A DNA stretch of 64,000 nucleotides from a virus (IMGVR_UViG_3300008259_000013:1-64000); one strand, 5' to 3'. Numbered from the stretch's first letter, positions 46,584-53,278 are shown. A program made the numbers and translations. The notes: generated from the letters alone by a model not told the origin.

Positions 46584-47072
46584 TTAAATAATTTTCCAGT
46601 TAGAATTAGTGTTATCAGAGCAATTAAGAGTATAATTTATATAAGGGTAAGGATAAAGAGTGCCCCAAGGATAAGGCACGGTATATGGTTGATTATTGTA
46701 ACCCAAAGCGTTTCTAAGCTGAGAATAAAGGTCTTGAGCCTCTTCCGTAGAGAGAGTTACTTCTTTGTCCTTTATTTTAAGATTTATAGAAATTGCTATA
46801 GATGGAGAATCCATGCAAGATTATAAAACAAGTCTTTGGTTTTTACAAATTTAATCGTGAATATTTATGCCGCGAATATTAATTTCTTCGTGCAAAAGAG
46901 CGCGAATAGAATAAAGAGCTTCATCGGCAGATTTAAATTCGTGACCGTATTTTATATAGCTCCGCAACTTATCCTCGAAATGACCAATGGCAGCAACCAT
47001 GTCGGGCGCTTGATTTGCCATTTCAAATGATCTTTGATCTTCAGGTAAATTAAATTCTAGTATTGCTTTCAT
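46584..47072 (-). other. two small hypothetical CDS (46584-46814, 46851-47072)
   Basis: 46814 ATG lies 5 nt below TTGTAA-N17-TATAAT; MKAILEFNLPED is a common phage motif. Confidence 0.65.
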
Positions 47073-47137
47073 ATTTTTGTTAAGCTAGTGTAAAACTTGC
47101 AACCATTTACTTAAAATATATGTCATACCTAATAACT

Positions 47138-47404
47138 ATGAAATATCTATTATACACGATACTCCTAGGGTTTTCTCTGACATCTATCGCTCAAGATGCA
47201 CCCAAACCACCAAAAAGTCAAGAAAGAAAAGGGCCTCCCAAGGAATTACTTGAAAAATACGACACAAATAAAGACGGAAAGCTAGACAAAGAAGAAAGAT
47301 CTAAAATTTCTCCCGAAGATCGTAAAAAAATGGGGCCACCCCGTAAAAAACAACCCCGTACTGGCGGACCAGATCCAATTCCAGAACATTTAAAAAAAAA
47401 TTAA
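47138..47404 (+). CDS. secreted EF-hand protein
   Basis: Signal peptide, DTNKDGKLDKEE canonical EF-hand loop. Confidence 0.75.
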   Translation: MKYLLYTILLGFSLTSIAQDAPKPPKSQERKGPPKELLEKYDTNKDGKLDKEERSKISPEDRKKMGPPRKKQPRTGGPDPIPEHLKKN

Positions 47405-47411
47405 AATAAAT

Positions 47412-47439
47412 AACCCGTAGAGAAATCTGCGGGTTTTTT
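47412..47439 (+). terminator. intrinsic terminator
   Basis: AACCCGTAGA-GAAA-TCTGCGGGTT-TTTT. Confidence 0.8.
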
Positions 47440-47458
47440 ATTTAGTGTAATGATTTTT

Positions 47459-48412
47459 ATGAGAAGACTCTTGGTTCTGTTTATGGCGTTGATGGTTTCT
47501 GGTTGTTTTTCCACAATTAGGCCACCTCAACAAGTTACCACATCTCAAGACAATATAGCCAAAGAGGAAAAGAAAGTTGATAAAACTTTATCTCAAATAG
47601 AAAAGAACGAAAAAGGCAAAAAAATTCAAACAGCCACTCTTGCCCAAGGCATTCAACATTCTTTAAATCAAGTAACTAATCCTCCTGTTCAAGTAGACAC
47701 AGCTAAGGCATTGAACGAAAGAGTAGTTTCTATTGTTGGTTCTCCTCATATAGACGAAATAAAAAGAATAAAAGCAACAGTTGATTTGCTTAACTCTGCA
47801 TTGGCTGAAGAAAGGCAAAAGGGTGCAGATTTACTATCTCAACGAGACGAAATAATTAACAAACTCCAAAAAGAAAAATCAGAGTTAAATCAAAAATATG
47901 ACGATCAACTTTGGCAAATGACAGATAAAGCTAAAGAAGTCGCAAAAGAAGCTGATCAAAATAAAGCCACGCTCGATGCAATGAGCGGAATGTTTGGGCT
48001 TAATGCTGTGTTTTGGGGATTGAAGAAGTTTTTCTTTAGTATGTTGACTGCGATTTTGATATTTGTTGTTATATTCGTCATTCTTAGACTTCTTGCTACT
48101 GTTCATCCTGCGGCTGGGGCGGCGTTTTCAATTTTTAATATGCTTGGTTCGGCAGTCATTTCTATAATTAAAGCTTTAACTCCCAAAGCATTCGAAATGA
48201 GCAACTTCGCCACAAAAGATAAGGTTGATGAATATAAATCTCCTCTTGTTAAAATTGTAGATGTAATTCAAGAGCTTAAAGAAAAGCAAAAAGAATCTCC
48301 TGATAGAATTTATCCTTTAACAGAAGTGCTTAAGAAATTTGATAAAGAAATGGATAGCTCAGAAAAAGATTTAATTGACGAAATCTTAAAAGAACAAAAA
48401 TGGATTAAATAA
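47459..48412 (+). CDS. lipoprotein with coiled coil and C-terminal TM helices (spanin-like topology)
   Basis: Lipobox VSGC, long coiled coil, two hydrophobic segments; GTGTAA 8 nt upstream. Confidence 0.6.
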   Translation: MRRLLVLFMALMVSGCFSTIRPPQQVTTSQDNIAKEEKKVDKTLSQIEKNEKGKKIQTATLAQGIQHSLNQVTNPPVQVDTAKALNERVVSIVGSPHIDEIKRIKATVDLLNSALAEERQKGADLLSQRDEIINKLQKEKSELNQKYDDQLWQMTDKAKEVAKEADQNKATLDAMSGMFGLNAVFWGLKKFFFSMLTAILIFVVIFVILRLLATVHPAAGAAFSIFNMLGSAVISIIKALTPKAFEMSNFATKDKVDEYKSPLVKIVDVIQELKEKQKESPDRIYPLTEVLKKFDKEMDSSEKDLIDEILKEQKWIK

Positions 48413-48430
48413 AGTGTAATTTAAAACACT

Positions 48431-48811
48431 ATGGATCCAACTATAACTAATGCTATTCCGCAACAAGTGTTAGAGGCAACTGGGCAAGATCTCACGGGAA
48501 AATACATGTGGCTGTTTGTGGTGGGTCTTGTTGCTTTGATGTTCAAATCAAGCATAGAAAAGCTTGCGGCAGCTTTGTTTATGTTTATTGGGAACGATTA
48601 TAAAGAAGATGATGTAGTATATGTAGATGGCAAACCGGGAAGAATCATCAGGGTTGGCCTCACAAAGACAGTTTTTTTTATTTATGATGTTGTTGATGGG
48701 AAAATCGTAAGCGGTAATAAACTAGTAGTACAAAATGAAAGACTAGCTGGATTAAATATTGAAAAACCTCTACCCAATTTAGATCTTAGTAGATTTAAAA
48801 AACATGAGTAA
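48431..48811 (+). CDS. minimal MscS-like membrane protein
   Basis: TM followed by YKEDDVVYVDGKPGRIIRVGL..T beta-domain motif. Confidence 0.55.
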   Translation: MDPTITNAIPQQVLEATGQDLTGKYMWLFVVGLVALMFKSSIEKLAAALFMFIGNDYKEDDVVYVDGKPGRIIRVGLTKTVFFIYDVVDGKIVSGNKLVVQNERLAGLNIEKPLPNLDLSRFKKHE

Positions 48812-49424
48812 TCTAGTATTAAATATAAAGAAATATTTGTTTTTTGTGCTTTTGCCGGTTGCGGCGTTGGTTATTCTTGCCTTGTCTAGCCTTAAAGATA
48901 TAGAACAAAATTATGCTAGATTCAGATTCGGTAGAGATATTACTTTATATTTAAGAAGATCGACTGATTTATTAACTTATTTAGGCGCAGCTTATACAAC
49001 TACAAGTGATAAAAAGTTTTTAATTCAATTTAATGATCACTTGAAAGAAAGAGAAAAGTATTTTAATGAAGAAATTTTTATTTCTAAATTACTAACTCAA
49101 GAAGAAGCAAAAGAATTTAGGAAAGGTTTAGATATAAGTAATGATTTAGCAAAAGACATCGAAAACCCGGCTTTTGCATCGATGGACAATAAGGCAATGT
49201 TCAGCGATAAATATTTAGAATACAAGAAAAAAATATACGACAACATAAATTCTTTTAGATCTATGATCAATGATAGCTCTGAAAAAGCTATCAAAGATGA
49301 AATAAAATTATTAAATATATATTTATATTTATTAGCTGCTATTGTATTATTTTTAGTTTATTTAATTAAGCAAGATAATAACGCTATTATTAAAAAGAAA
49401 CCCACAAAAAAGAAAAAGAGATAA
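48804..49424 (+). CDS. two-TM protein with periplasmic helical-bundle sensor domain, no output domain
   Basis: LRRSTDLLT..YTTT.D..F, LT.EE....LD.SNDLA..E..AF, FSDKY..YK..I match chemoreceptor/HK sensor pattern. Confidence 0.55.
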   Translation: MSNLVLNIKKYLFFVLLPVAALVILALSSLKDIEQNYARFRFGRDITLYLRRSTDLLTYLGAAYTTTSDKKFLIQFNDHLKEREKYFNEEIFISKLLTQEEAKEFRKGLDISNDLAKDIENPAFASMDNKAMFSDKYLEYKKKIYDNINSFRSMINDSSEKAIKDEIKLLNIYLYLLAAIVLFLVYLIKQDNNAIIKKKPTKKKKR

Positions 49425-49425
49425 T

Positions 49426-49752
49426 ATGGATCATCTTCAAAAATTAGGTATCCAGATAGGGTTTTTAATAAGTGGGCTATTTGGTGCTATATTAATGGCA
49501 ACTAAAAACGCAAAAACAGACGCAAAATCCGTAATTCTTTCTCTTGTAGGAGGAATGTCTGCTGCGAATTTCTTAACTCCTGTATTAGTAGATACTTTGA
49601 ACATTGCTAATGTTAAACACCAAAATGGTGTGGCTTTCATTGCTGGTTTTTTAGGTTTGAAATTGGTTGAATTGATAAGCGAAAAGTTTTTAGAAAAAAT
49701 CGGGCAAAATTCAAAAACTCCCAAAAAAAGAAAGAAAAAAATAAATGGCTAG
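49426..49752 (+). CDS. holin-like 3-TM membrane protein
   Basis: SGLFGA, GGMSAANFLTP, AFIAGFLGL; basic C-terminus. Confidence 0.55.
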   Translation: MDHLQKLGIQIGFLISGLFGAILMATKNAKTDAKSVILSLVGGMSAANFLTPVLVDTLNIANVKHQNGVAFIAGFLGLKLVELISEKFLEKIGQNSKTPKKRKKKING

Positions 49753-51523
49753 CAATATTTTTAATCATATTAGAAGAGGCCTATACGACAACGTTTACAA
49801 TTGTATAGAAAAAGAAAAGGTTAATGTTAATCAGAGAGATGACGATACTGGCAATCCTCCTCTCATTTTCGCGGTCCAAGAAAATCAAAAGGAAATAGTA
49901 ATATTATTGCTTAATCATGGCGCAGATCCTAATATTACTGATTGGACAGGTAAAAATACAGCATTAGATATAGCAGAACAAAAGAATCATATTGGTTTAA
50001 TAGAAATACTGCAAAAGAAAGGCGCAAGATATGGCAGCGGAAGTAGTTTCCATTTAGCCGCCAAAAATGGAGATATAGTTTCAGTAGAAGAGATGCTTAA
50101 TAAAGGTCATACTTTAAATGAAGTTGATGCTGCTAAAGGATGGACTGCTTTGCATTACGCCGTGCATTATGGACAAAAGCATCTTGTGGAGTATTTGCTT
50201 GTTCGCGGGGTTGATGTCAATGCTAAAGACTTCTTAGGTAAAAACAATCCAATAGATGTTCTTGCTCTTGGGAATAGAGGAGAAATAGTTAAAATATTAG
50301 TCAAAGCTGGAGCTAAATCTGCTTATGGATCAAGCATTCATTTCTGTGCCGAAACAGGTGATTTTGCTGGGGTTCAAAAATTCTATGATATTGATGGCAA
50401 AATTAATGGCAGAGACGATAAAAATGGTTGGATGCCAATACATTATGCTGTAAATGCTGGTGATATTGAAATGGTAGAGTATTTAATTTGTTTGGGGGCT
50501 AATGTAAACGGCGCAGATTTCAAAGGAGAAATAGCCCCTTTAGATTTAGCAATTAAAACAGGTAATGCAAAAATGCAAGCATTACTGCAAGCTAAAGGAG
50601 GAACTAGAAAAAAGAAAGTTGATACTGGAGGTGGTAGTGGTCCTGATACATATATTGATGTTTCTATTGTTCTCAAAGACGAAATGCGCAGATATTTTGA
50701 ACGTAGAGAAAAAGAAGAAGCTCGTTTAAAAAAGATTCAAGAAGAAGAAGACGCTAAAAATAAAAATGTAAAGAAAAAAGAAAAGAAAACTGTCAATTGG
50801 CAAGACTTTTTAAAAAGCAAAAATAAACCGACAGAAGAAATAAAAGCTGTAGAAGAAAGAAAACCAGAGCCGCCAAAGCCTCCTAAAAAGATAATTAAGC
50901 AAGTAGAAGCTATTGATGCGGAAGTTAAATCTAGCCGACTTGAATTAGATGTAATACAGCCGGGTTATATATTCTTTATGGATATTGTGGGGTACAGTAA
51001 AAAAACTACAGAAGAGCAAAGAAAATGTTTTAAAGATCTTGGGCAAATCGTCAAAGATACAATTCAATTTAAAACTGCGAATGCTCTTGAAAAATTGATT
51101 GTATTGCCGACTGGAGACGGCATGATCCTTGGTTTCTTTACTTATTTAGAAGATGCTATAAACTGTGGAATTACTGTCGCTAAAGCAGTAAAAAATAGAC
51201 CAGATTTAGAAATGAGAATGGGCATTCATTGCGGTGACGTATGCCCTCTTGAAGATATTAATGGTAATCTTAATATTAGTGGTGATGGCATCAACTATGC
51301 CCAGCGAGTTATGGATGCTGGCGAAGCTAATCATTTGTTAGTAAGTGCTGATGTAATTGTTAAATATGATAGACCTAATTATGTTTTGGTGCAAGATTTG
51401 GGAGATGTTATTGTTAAGCATGGCGTTGTTATGCACTTATACAGTCTTCATGGATCTGATTTCGGAAATAGTAATTTCCCATCTTCGAGAGTCAAAAAAG
51501 CAGAACCAAATACTAAAACATGA
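49745..51523 (+). CDS. ankyrin-repeat / class III nucleotidyl (adenylate/guanylate-type) cyclase fusion
   Basis: Three blocks of ANK repeats (GWTALHYAV, GADVN/GANVN); cyclase FMDIVGYS, PTGDGM, RMGIHCG, GDGINYAQR. Confidence 0.88.
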   Translation: MASNIFNHIRRGLYDNVYNCIEKEKVNVNQRDDDTGNPPLIFAVQENQKEIVILLLNHGADPNITDWTGKNTALDIAEQKNHIGLIEILQKKGARYGSGSSFHLAAKNGDIVSVEEMLNKGHTLNEVDAAKGWTALHYAVHYGQKHLVEYLLVRGVDVNAKDFLGKNNPIDVLALGNRGEIVKILVKAGAKSAYGSSIHFCAETGDFAGVQKFYDIDGKINGRDDKNGWMPIHYAVNAGDIEMVEYLICLGANVNGADFKGEIAPLDLAIKTGNAKMQALLQAKGGTRKKKVDTGGGSGPDTYIDVSIVLKDEMRRYFERREKEEARLKKIQEEEDAKNKNVKKKEKKTVNWQDFLKSKNKPTEEIKAVEERKPEPPKPPKKIIKQVEAIDAEVKSSRLELDVIQPGYIFFMDIVGYSKKTTEEQRKCFKDLGQIVKDTIQFKTANALEKLIVLPTGDGMILGFFTYLEDAINCGITVAKAVKNRPDLEMRMGIHCGDVCPLEDINGNLNISGDGINYAQRVMDAGEANHLLVSADVIVKYDRPNYVLVQDLGDVIVKHGVVMHLYSLHGSDFGNSNFPSSRVKKAEPNTKT

Positions 51524-51732
51524 AAACACTTCCTTTAGTCAGACAGTATCATCAAGATATAACAAATACAGACTTGGATATATACAAGATCGAAAACAAG
51601 GTTTTTGCCGCGCCTATAGACTCTCATCCAGATCCATTTCAGGTGAATGATAGACTAGCAATCAATCAAATTAATGACACAAAAATTAAAATTGTTGTTT
51701 ACAATTCTAAGGGTTTATTTTATATAATTTAA
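51520..51732 (+). CDS. hypothetical protein coupled to cyclase
   Basis: ATGA overlap. Confidence 0.65.
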   Translation: MKTLPLVRQYHQDITNTDLDIYKIENKVFAAPIDSHPDPFQVNDRLAINQINDTKIKIVVYNSKGLFYII

Positions 51733-51773
51733 GGATTTCCAAGTTAATAAAAAAAGTGTAAATAACTATACTT

Positions 51774-51995
51774 ATGTCAGAAGAATATCGCCAAAATAGT
51801 TACGACGCTGTTTTCTCCCGGATGGAGGCGAAACTAGATAAAATTTCTTCTGATATCGTAGAAATGAAAGAAAACGGCAAAGAGGTAGAAAAAAGAGTTG
51901 CCGCGCTAGAATTTTTTAGATATTATCTAGCGGGAATCGTAGCGGCAGGAGGAGCGTTAGCGGGATATTTCTCCTCAAAGATTATGAAAGGTTAA
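51774..51995 (+). CDS. small coiled-coil plus C-terminal TM protein (XhlA/holin-like)
   Basis: RMEAKLD..RVAALE then hydrophobic tail; GTGTAA upstream. Confidence 0.6.
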   Translation: MSEEYRQNSYDAVFSRMEAKLDKISSDIVEMKENGKEVEKRVAALEFFRYYLAGIVAAGGALAGYFSSKIMKG

Positions 51996-53278
51996 TTAAA
52001 TTCTCTGTAGTTAATTCCGCCGTAAACAATAGAATCAGAAGCTCCTAAAGGCTGGCAAGATAAAACAAGAACATCTTTTCTTCCAGTTATAGAAGACCCA
52101 AGTTTTAATAAAGATTTCAAAGAGTCAGCTTGTATGTCTGTCTTAGCTTGAGCATATCCTCCAGCAATACTAAATCCACCAGAAATCACAGTTCCATTCG
52201 GGGCTACAGCATATTCTAAAGAAGAGTTATTTACTCCTGAATAAGTCAAATTATTTATTCCAGAAGGATTTAAATATAACTGCCATTCATAGTTATCATT
52301 GCTAACAGTTAAAAGACTAAGATCCAAAACATCTATTGTAGCTGATAAATATCCAGTTTTTAATCTCGTTGCAATTATTGCGTTTGTGACATTTTTTGTG
52401 GCTGTAACGGCTGAGCCTCTAGTAGAAACATAAGAATTAAGAGCCACTTCTTCTCTTCCTCCTTCGCTAATAACAGCAGAGCAAATGCAATTAATAGTTG
52501 AAGCCGCCCCAGTTCCATCATTAATTATTTGATATCTTAATGGAAGATTAGGCGTTGACATGTAAACAGTTGTCAAATTATTAGCATTCAACAACTCATG
52601 AACATAATACGTTATTCCATTTACATTAAAACCAAATCTTACTCTTCCTACGCCAAGCCATTCGAAGTCTATAATAAATATTTGAGTTTTAGTAAAATCT
52701 AAAGTAATTTCACTTGCTCCTGTGCCGTCCATCTTGTCTATGTTCCAAGATGATTGAGGATAAGGATTGTCTGATGCGCTGCCTCCTGTATAAGTCCTTC
52801 TTACTAGATTTATTGTTCCAGCATTATTTTCAAGAAATAAACCATTATTATCATCAAAATAACCCATTCTTGATATAATACCAGTTCCACCGCCAGATGC
52901 TTTAAGTATACCAGTAATAAATATCAATTGACTCTTAGAGGGCTGATAATTAAACCTCATAAAAGTCTGACGAGTCCTTTTGCCAGCAGTATTTAATGAT
53001 ACTCCTAGAGTTGTAGATGCTGTGTTGGTGGAGTGAGTAGATGTCGTGCCAGAGCCGCTTTCTTGAATATCATCCCAGTACAAAGGTTGATTATCAAAAA
53101 TTTGCTTGCTGTTAAAGATCATTTCGGGATTAGAAACTCTTTGTCTCCCGAAAGCGTCTGCTCCAGCAGCACCGCCAGCAAAATCTGTGGAGTGTATTGG
53201 TCTATATTTATTTAATGAGACATCATAAAGAGTCGGGCAATCTACATGCTCCGGGTTATCTAAGTTAAAGCTGGACAT
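51992..53278 (-). CDS. probable virion structural / lectin-like protein
   Basis: DAFGRQRVSNP, YQPSKS, FEWLGVG, PNLPLRY motifs common in large-phage structural proteins; GTGTAA upstream. Confidence 0.65.
   Translation of the reverse strand: MSSFNLDNPEHVDCPTLYDVSLNKYRPIHSTDFAGGAAGADAFGRQRVSNPEMIFNSKQIFDNQPLYWDDIQESGSGTTSTHSTNTASTTLGVSLNTAGKRTRQTFMRFNYQPSKSQLIFITGILKASGGGTGIISRMGYFDDNNGLFLENNAGTINLVRRTYTGGSASDNPYPQSSWNIDKMDGTGASEITLDFTKTQIFIIDFEWLGVGRVRFGFNVNGITYYVHELLNANNLTTVYMSTPNLPLRYQIINDGTGAASTINCICSAVISEGGREEVALNSYVSTRGSAVTATKNVTNAIIATRLKTGYLSATIDVLDLSLLTVSNDNYEWQLYLNPSGINNLTYSGVNNSSLEYAVAPNGTVISGGFSIAGGYAQAKTDIQADSLKSLLKLGSSITGRKDVLVLSCQPLGASDSIVYGGINYREFN

Follow-up and report, generated by a model that had tools for sequence, protein, structure and literature searches.

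The 64,000-nt window analyzed here (IMGVR_UViG_3300008259_000013:1-64000) is the first 64 kb of a 174,551-bp IMG/VR phage record, which was rated as complete by CheckV. Six co-oriented genes (g1 to g6) were found on its + strand at 47450–51732, and they encoded a lipoprotein, a small MscS-like protein, a sensor-like membrane protein, a holin, a protein with ankyrin repeats and a class III nucleotidyl cyclase domain (the ankyrin-cyclase) and a 70-aa protein. The open reading frames (ORFs) overlapped or abutted as a preliminary description of this stretch had claimed, and that description interpreted them as a single split receptor-cyclase system. However, the neighboring, overlapping genes are probably not one system, because g3 and g4 on the one side and g5 on the other were not co-conserved in relatives when synteny was checked. 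It is rather likely that they are instead a mosaic of separately inherited cassettes, which lie beside each other in a plastic hotspot downstream of g1. The genes concerned are as follows.

47450 (or 47459)–48412, + strand: g1, 320-aa lipoprotein with lipobox Cys19
48431–48811, + strand: g2, 126-aa protein, modeled as a long kinked helix and an SH3-like beta domain
48804–49424, + strand: g3, 206-aa protein with a four-helix bundle between two transmembrane helices (TM1 and TM2), a basic C-terminal tail and no output domain
49426–49752, + strand: g4, 108-aa holin; two or three hydrophobic helices, C-terminus basic
49745–50614, + strand: g5 ankyrin-repeat domain, residues 1–290 (Ank_2, 2.5e-36)
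50960–51469, + strand: g5 class III cyclase homology domain, residues 406–575
51520–51732, + strand: g6, 70-aa ORF overlapping the g5 stop codon (ATGA)
51774–51995, + strand: g7, 73-aa coiled coil with a Gly/Ala-rich C-terminal hydrophobic helix

Inheritance of the genes downstream of g1

The g5-type cyclase was found in 79 IMG/VR loci at 78–93% identity and in one more at 54%. In the 79 loci g1-g2-g5-g6 were contiguous, g2 ended ~12 nt before g5 in nearly all of them, and neither g3 nor g4 was detected in any. The genes g3 and g4 each occurred on eight loci, either as g1-g3-g4-g7 or after g1 with an intervening gene, and g3 always adjoined g4. The full order of the window was repeated in one locus only (L086). 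Among the loci centered on g1, the arrangements were 1-2-5-6 (38 loci), 1-2-5 (3), 1-3-4-7 (3), 1-2 (3) and 1-8r (2), and in 11 loci other genes followed g1, such as those for a helicase or an HNH endonuclease. In two contigs, the cyclase was ~25 kb away from g3-g4.

Two complete genomes were reciprocal in their gene content. Genome G089 (296 kb) possessed g1, g2 and two cyclases, and a search of the whole record gave no match to g3 or g4; genome G090 (230 kb) possessed g1, g3 and g4, and its whole record contained no PF00211 domain. In L242, a near relative of the window phage (93% identical in g0 and 98% in g8), a single gene replaced g2 to g7. This gene (L242:6052-6654), like the one found after g1 in L253 (6067-6690), encoded a protein of 200–207 aa in which a hydrophobic helix at the N-terminus was accompanied by a PAS domain (PAS_9, 3.4e-7), without any output domain. 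The idea that this region serves sensing was thus correct in part: the hotspot collects sensor and cyclase genes, including this TM plus PAS gene and a two-TM receptor cyclase in relatives, but they probably do not form a single wired system.

The g1 hotspot was common to the CheckV-complete records of L031 (296 kb), L088 (230 kb) and the window phage (175 kb). Since it was present in complete genomes of very different size, the cassette spans T4-sized and jumbo-sized phages. Records of ~132 kb with the g1 hotspot were rated 45–48% complete by CheckV.

The ankyrin-cyclase and its neighbors

The whole g5 ORF extended over 49745–51523 on the + strand, and a Lys/Glu-rich linker joined its ankyrin and cyclase domains. 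The ankyrin repeats held invariant residues across 16 relatives. The cyclase domain matched Guanylate_cyc (PF00211) at 22.9 bits against a cut-off of 21.9, and a profile of eight relatives of this domain matched the solved cyclases 3mr7 (8.4e-9), Ma1120 (7.8e-8) and LipJ (5.7e-7). D413 (FMDIVG), D458 (TGDG) and the N517/R521 pair (INYAQR) aligned with the catalytic positions of 3mr7 and 1ybt, and all four were invariant or nearly so in the relatives of g5. On its sequence, g5 is a predicted soluble ankyrin-repeat class III nucleotidyl cyclase with intact active-site residues, in agreement with the preliminary description. The base-selecting positions were occupied by Leu454 and Asn510, which were conserved across the family and differ from the canonical pairs (Lys/Asp or Lys/Thr for ATP; Glu/Cys-type for GTP), so that the base of the product cannot be read from the sequence. 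This was the sole cyclase of the window's own genome, and the domain that binds cyclic nucleoside monophosphates (cNMP; PF00027) was absent from all 174.5 kb.

The ankyrin-cyclase was also observed outside this arrangement. In two unrelated phage contigs (L078 and L254, ~48–49% GC), shorter forms of 480–485 aa, 53–55% identical in the domain, were located among replication genes without g1 or g2. Two contigs of Verrucomicrobiota metagenome-assembled genomes (MAGs; L256:4810-6594 and L258:4810-6594, 63–65% GC) carried a 594-aa orthologue with 70% identity to g5 over ~590 aa, and the GC content at its third codon positions was 0.81–0.82 vs. 0.23 in the phage. This suggested that the protein has been kept through a complete compositional turnover. 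The orthologue was flanked by NAD-ligase (LigA-like) and MreB-like genes, as read from the ORF sequences, and elsewhere in Verrucomicrobiota by the glutamate synthase genes GltBD (Pfam). It was rare in that order, where two of 81 sampled genomes matched, one of them distantly, and g2 was not found in the Verrucomicrobiota genomes that had it. In a cyclase-domain tree the ankyrin-cyclases formed a clade with 100/100 support, and the bacterial and T4-like phage copies fell into a polytomy, which did not decide the direction of transfer. A search with the cyclase domain returned thousands of proteins, and the best 120 were nearly all ankyrin-cyclases.

In the phages of this group, the usual neighbor of a cyclase gene was g2, which nearly always adjoined one. 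Among the 68 usable g2 loci, g1 was directly upstream in 65 and g5 came next in 62. In four contigs, g2 was followed by a gene for a 213-aa secreted, Tyr-rich protein that looked like a beta barrel (outer membrane protein-like) and then by a receptor adenylate cyclase. In the latter (479–483 aa), two hydrophobic segments enclosed ~160 aa, and a canonical adenylate cyclase domain (PF00211, 5.8e-27) with Lys and Thr at the selecting positions came next. This second cyclase cassette occurred after g2 or the ankyrin-cyclase at L101:5384-7461, and also in L105, L100, L166 and L037, and some loci had tandem cyclases (g1-g2-g5-P0266-P0265). Because tandem forms exist, the two contexts of g2 with a cyclase may share one origin. 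A Mom-family protein (PF25680, 5.1e-42) was encoded just downstream of the cyclase island at L166:8310-9080.

The preliminary description called g2 MscS-like. Its structural model was of low confidence (predicted local distance difference test score, pLDDT, 62.8) and displayed a kinked long helix and a small beta barrel. The top Foldseek matches were MscS and MSL10 at a weak E of 3.7e-3, the Pfam family MS_channel_2nd stayed below its cut-off (E 0.033), and the VIA Z scores to MscS were 5.5–7.1, with SH3-like domains scoring equally on the barrel alone. The best matches that spanned both the helix and the barrel were MscS-family channels, over MscS residues 91–180 (TM3 and the beta domain). 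The hydrophobic stretch of g2 was short, its 126 residues ended after the beta domain without a TM1-TM2 paddle, an alpha-beta domain or a C-terminal barrel, and a PDB sequence profile search gave nothing meaningful. What stood of the claim was therefore a weak likeness to TM3 and the beta domain, with scores below the cut-offs and the rest of MscS absent; the MscS-like identity is plausible but not established.

The small gene g6 followed g5 in most phage copies, but not all. It belonged to no family and had no relatives outside this phage group. It was absent from the bacterial and other-phage contexts of the ankyrin-cyclase that were examined, and it had no similarity to the small ORF after the L078 cyclase.

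The sensor-like protein, the holin and the surrounding genome

The earlier assignment of g3 as a periplasmic sensor without an output domain agreed with its fold. In the model (pLDDT 84.7), TM1 continued into helix 1 of the bundle and helix 4 continued into TM2. Comparison with the sensor domains of methyl-accepting chemotaxis proteins (MCPs) and histidine kinases gave Z scores of 11.6–13.9, which is the upper edge of the helical-bundle background, with NarQ and Tsr aligned over 180–198 of the 206 residues. TM scores of 0.78–0.82 were obtained against predicted HAMP-GGDEF and MCP proteins, in their N-terminal modules. Because helical bundles have a high background, this receptor likeness is evidence at the level of the fold, and the model suggested that g3 has the fold of a receptor input module without its output domain. 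Sequence searches of g3 in Pfam, NCBIfam and PDB gave no match, and a likeness to CHASE3 appeared in language-model features alone (0.96). Nineteen relatives were found among 1.84 billion representative proteins, all of them ≤231 aa, and no fused receptor form was seen among the 19.

As had been proposed, g4 was holin-like: it matched the holin family phrog_2359 at 1.4e-11 and other holin PHROGs weakly. The coiled coil g7 was weakly similar to XhlA (Pfam E 0.031), and it was located directly 3′ of g4 in relatives without g5-g6 (1-3-4-7). In some relatives, such as L081, the position between g1 and g3 (L081:4068-4991) was occupied by a gene for a 307-aa low-complexity protein, rich in Ala, Gly and Glu, with a coiled-coil C-terminus and no family.

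Upstream of the variable region, g1 is a conserved core gene of the phage for an envelope lipoprotein, which anchors this region. The lipobox Cys19 was invariant in 12 relatives. The protein combined a coiled-coil region (~160 aa) with an invariant SGMFGLNAVFWGLKKF segment, a pair of hydrophobic helices (194–212 and 222–243) and a charged tail of 75 aa, and its look-alikes were virus-only clusters without a Pfam family. The N-terminal lipoprotein signal and the membrane helices at 194–243 were combined in one chain, which is the layout of a unimolecular spanin, and the topology of g1 would resemble one; the PHROG match to an Rz-like spanin was weak (E 0.041) and lay over the signal peptide. 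Three further features were recorded near g1 and g2.

47120–47404, + strand: g0, 94-aa secreted-looking protein with one EF-hand-like loop, upstream of the six genes
47412–47435, + strand: terminator-like hairpin (10-bp stem and T run) between g0 and g1
48414–48419, + strand: GTGTAA motif, 12 nt before the g2 start

The N-terminus of g0 resembled a signal peptide, and its EF-hand-like loop was DTNKDGKLDKEE, with EF-hand Pfam matches below the cut-offs (E 1.2e-4). Copies of g0 with 76–93% identity preceded g1 in L082, L242 and L081.

The phage origin of this DNA was evident from the window proteins, which included RIIA, a clamp loader, ThyX, carbamoyl- and glycosyltransferases and a virion protein of phrog_1645. 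Based on this gene content and on the virion protein, which was ≤35% identical to cyanomyovirus proteins, the source is an uncultured, distant T4-like myovirus (a freshwater phage). Neither the DNA at 47000–52000 nor the proteins of the cyclase domain, g1 and g4 had a match among 50,697 GenBank phage records. No host is named, because the MAG labels of the phage-like contigs were in conflict (Fonsibacter, Gammaproteobacteria, Verrucomicrobiota and Bacteroidetes).

The junctions of the six genes were close: g2 and g3 overlapped by 8 nt, g3 and g4 were separated by 1 nt, g4 and g5 overlapped by 8 nt, and g5 and g6 shared an ATGA. The GTGTAA copies reported at 47445 (before g1) and 48414 were both found, and further copies preceded g0 (47088) and g7 (51756). 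Copies elsewhere in the window included 53292(-), 24311, 29472, 26354(-) and 10768(-), and the motif was absent before g3, g4, g5 and g6. It was not enriched overall (17 copies observed in the window vs. 20.2 expected). Its placement was biased, since 10 of the 17 copies were ≤35 nt upstream of a same-strand ATG ORF (background 5%), and genome-wide 26 of 54 copies were ≤40 nt upstream of an ATG ORF. It often occurred as an A-rich stretch plus AGTGTAAT, 9–13 nt upstream of many start codons, and it may be a promoter or translation signal of the phage. Its use as a marker of a temporal class was rejected, as copies preceded both the virion protein gene and a ribonucleotide reductase gene. A hairpin scan from g1 to g7 found none comparable to the 10-bp one after g0. 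Because there was no GTGTAA motif or strong terminator between g2 and g6, these genes probably form one transcription unit in the window phage.

Explanations for the gene set and comparison with known systems

In the mosaic explanation, one cassette would consist of g3 and g4 with g7, namely a membrane protein resembling a receptor input module (g3), a holin (g4) and an XhlA-like helper (g7). Here g3 may regulate the holin from the periplasmic side as an antiholin-like timer, and its input would not feed the cyclase. The other cassette would be built on g5, which in most cases is accompanied by g6 and has g2 in front of it. In this cassette g5 may act as an autonomous enzyme, because it was also found on its own in unrelated phages and in a small number of Verrucomicrobiota chromosomes. 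It might dimerize via the cyclase domain, and its ankyrin domain might bind a protein that localizes or controls it. Since the phage itself has no gene for a cNMP-binding domain, the cyclic nucleotide would act on receptors of the host. A part for g2 as a possible membrane partner of g5 is the weakest step, and g6 may or may not contribute to the cassette.

Several points weigh against this explanation. In the window and in L086 the genes adjoin each other and are coupled in translation; being probably co-transcribed, they could have been wired together secondarily. The cyclase comes after g2 in nearly every locus, and the two could be a tighter functional unit. The holin call for g4 depends on a single PHROG family; no endolysin was found near it, and PF00959 was absent from the genome, other lysin families not having been searched. 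The contact between g3 and g4 remains a predicted one, as does the cyclase activity of g5, with its non-canonical selecting residues. The loci were not independent, and the counts of arrangements overstate the sample size because many of them are near-identical contigs of lake time series. Finally, the full set could be ancestral and the other arrangements could have arisen by deletion; with either ancestry, each cassette persists without the other.

Other explanations were weighed against this one. The original one, in which an envelope cue sensed by g3 is relayed to g5, whose cyclic nucleotide controls the holin, the MscS-like protein or exclusion, draws on the contiguity in the window and L086, on the input fold of g3 without an output, and on the presence in the hotspot of relatives of a fused analogue (the two-TM receptor adenylate cyclase) and the TM plus PAS protein. 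We regard it as quite improbable, since g3/g4 and g5 were inherited apart, with reciprocal complete genomes, g5 was found in contexts without any membrane partner, and the genome had no cNMP-binding domain. A related possibility, limited to the full set in the window and L086, is one envelope-sensing island for lysis control, in which g3 gates the holin from the periplasm and an ankyrin-cyclase tethered to the membrane by g2 adds an input from a cyclic nucleotide with an unusual base, so that two sensory channels set lysis timing or phage exclusion. To our knowledge, no phage system of this two-channel architecture has been described, and we consider the proposal unlikely. If the product of g5 instead opened a g2 pore, directly or via g1, depolarization could cause superinfection exclusion or set lysis timing. 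This Pycsar-like explanation would account for the 62 of 68 usable loci in which g5 follows g2, for the four contigs in which the outer membrane protein-like gene and the receptor cyclase do so, and for the full-length structural matches of g2. The Pycsar logic, which had been part of the preliminary description, found no PycC or Pycsar effector match in PADLOC, however, and g2 has no nucleotide-binding domain, a short hydrophobic stretch and an MscS likeness below significance (Pfam E 0.033; Z < 8). In addition, g5 occurs without g2 in bacteria and other phages, and the tandem loci mean that the two cyclase contexts were perhaps not independent events. A pore of this kind is unlikely.

The cyclase might also serve host takeover alone: the phage would make a cyclic nucleotide, probably cyclic AMP or a related one, which reprograms host transcription or metabolism, and its location near lysis genes would be a chance outcome of the hotspot. 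Reprogramming of this kind has been proposed for the adenylate cyclases in the curli modules of pelagiphages. For pelagiphages, adenylate cyclases accompanied by sensor kinases have been published (PMC9599517), the g5 orthologues are ordinary chromosomal genes, and no phage cNMP receptor was found. The near-constant g2 neighbor and the ankyrin domain are left unexplained, however, and GTGTAA gives no expression timing that could help. This view, which overlaps largely with the mosaic explanation, appears improbable as a sufficient account. The last alternative is a pseudo-enzyme or another chemistry, with g5 acting mainly as an ankyrin scaffold, to which the Leu/Asn in place of the base-selecting Lys/Asp pair and the single-sequence Pfam score barely over its cut-off would point. 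But the metal Asp pair, the Asn/Arg and the Arg of the RxGxH strand vary little or not at all among copies that are only 31–40% identical overall and across a huge GC shift. Since the catalytic residues were kept in this way, the active site is probably conserved and a scaffold role is very improbable. The mosaic of cassettes is, in our opinion, the better account of the region.

If this account is true, the ankyrin-class III cyclases are a large, mostly phage-borne enzyme family, and their conserved, non-canonical base-selecting residues make the product of g5 an easily testable question. The fixed pairing of an output-less receptor-type sensor with a holin would amount to a new type of regulator for lysis timing. 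Sensory and second-messenger genes would also be carried repeatedly beside envelope and lysis genes in freshwater T4-like and jumbo phages. No paper on phage ankyrin-cyclases was found in literature searches, and the pelagimyophage paper PMC7029224 made no mention of a cyclase, an ankyrin or a holin.

Individual proteins of the region resemble known ones in part. The catalytic domain of g5 is homologous to that of mycobacterial and other soluble class III cyclases (Ma1120, Rv1900c LipJ and 3mr7), with both metal Asp residues and the transition-state Asn and Arg, whereas g5 adds an N-terminal ankyrin domain and a Lys/Glu-rich linker, has Leu and Asn at the base-selecting positions, and belongs to a mainly phage-borne family. 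The helix and beta domain of g2 align to TM3 and the beta domain of MscS-family channels, but g2 has no counterpart of TM1-TM2, of the alpha-beta domain or of the C-terminal barrel, and its scores are below significance. The architecture of g3 (TM1, four-helix bundle, TM2) is that of the input modules of MCPs and sensor kinases such as Tar/Tsr, NarQ, MCP2201 and KinB; unlike them, g3 has no HAMP or output domain and no Pfam match.

The lysis inhibition pair of phage T4 consists of the holin T and the antiholin RI. The logic proposed for g3 would be analogous to the action of RI on T, and in both cases a T4-like phage has a holin beside a membrane protein with a helical periplasmic domain, a possible lysis timer. 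No sequence relation was found between the two pairs, however, and g3 combines two TM helices with a receptor-type four-helix bundle, while g4 is a small protein with multiple TM helices, unlike T.

Pycsar combines a PycC cyclase with a TM or TIR effector that binds cNMP. It shares with the present region a class III-type cyclase, unusual base-selecting residues and small membrane neighbors. PADLOC-DB matched g5 through ankyrin-type entries alone (PDC-M72A, Ankyrin and MzaA) and gave no match for g2, g3, g4, g6 or g7; the genome lacks a cNMP-binding domain, and g5 resides in a lytic-type phage, whereas Pycsar belongs to bacterial defense islands.

The curli (type VIII secretion system, T8SS) module of pelagiphages carries a histidine kinase, FecR and an adenylate cyclase, with a predicted function (Wittmers et al., 2022, PMC9599517). 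Like the window, it comes from an aquatic phage and has genes for sensor-type proteins and a class III cyclase in the midst of envelope genes. In contrast to this module, the window region showed no CsgG, CsgF, curlin or FecR, g5 is soluble and fused to ankyrin repeats, and g3 is a sensor without a kinase that is paired with a holin. If true, the hotspot downstream of g1 extends the published picture of marine pelagiphages to freshwater T4-like and jumbo phages.

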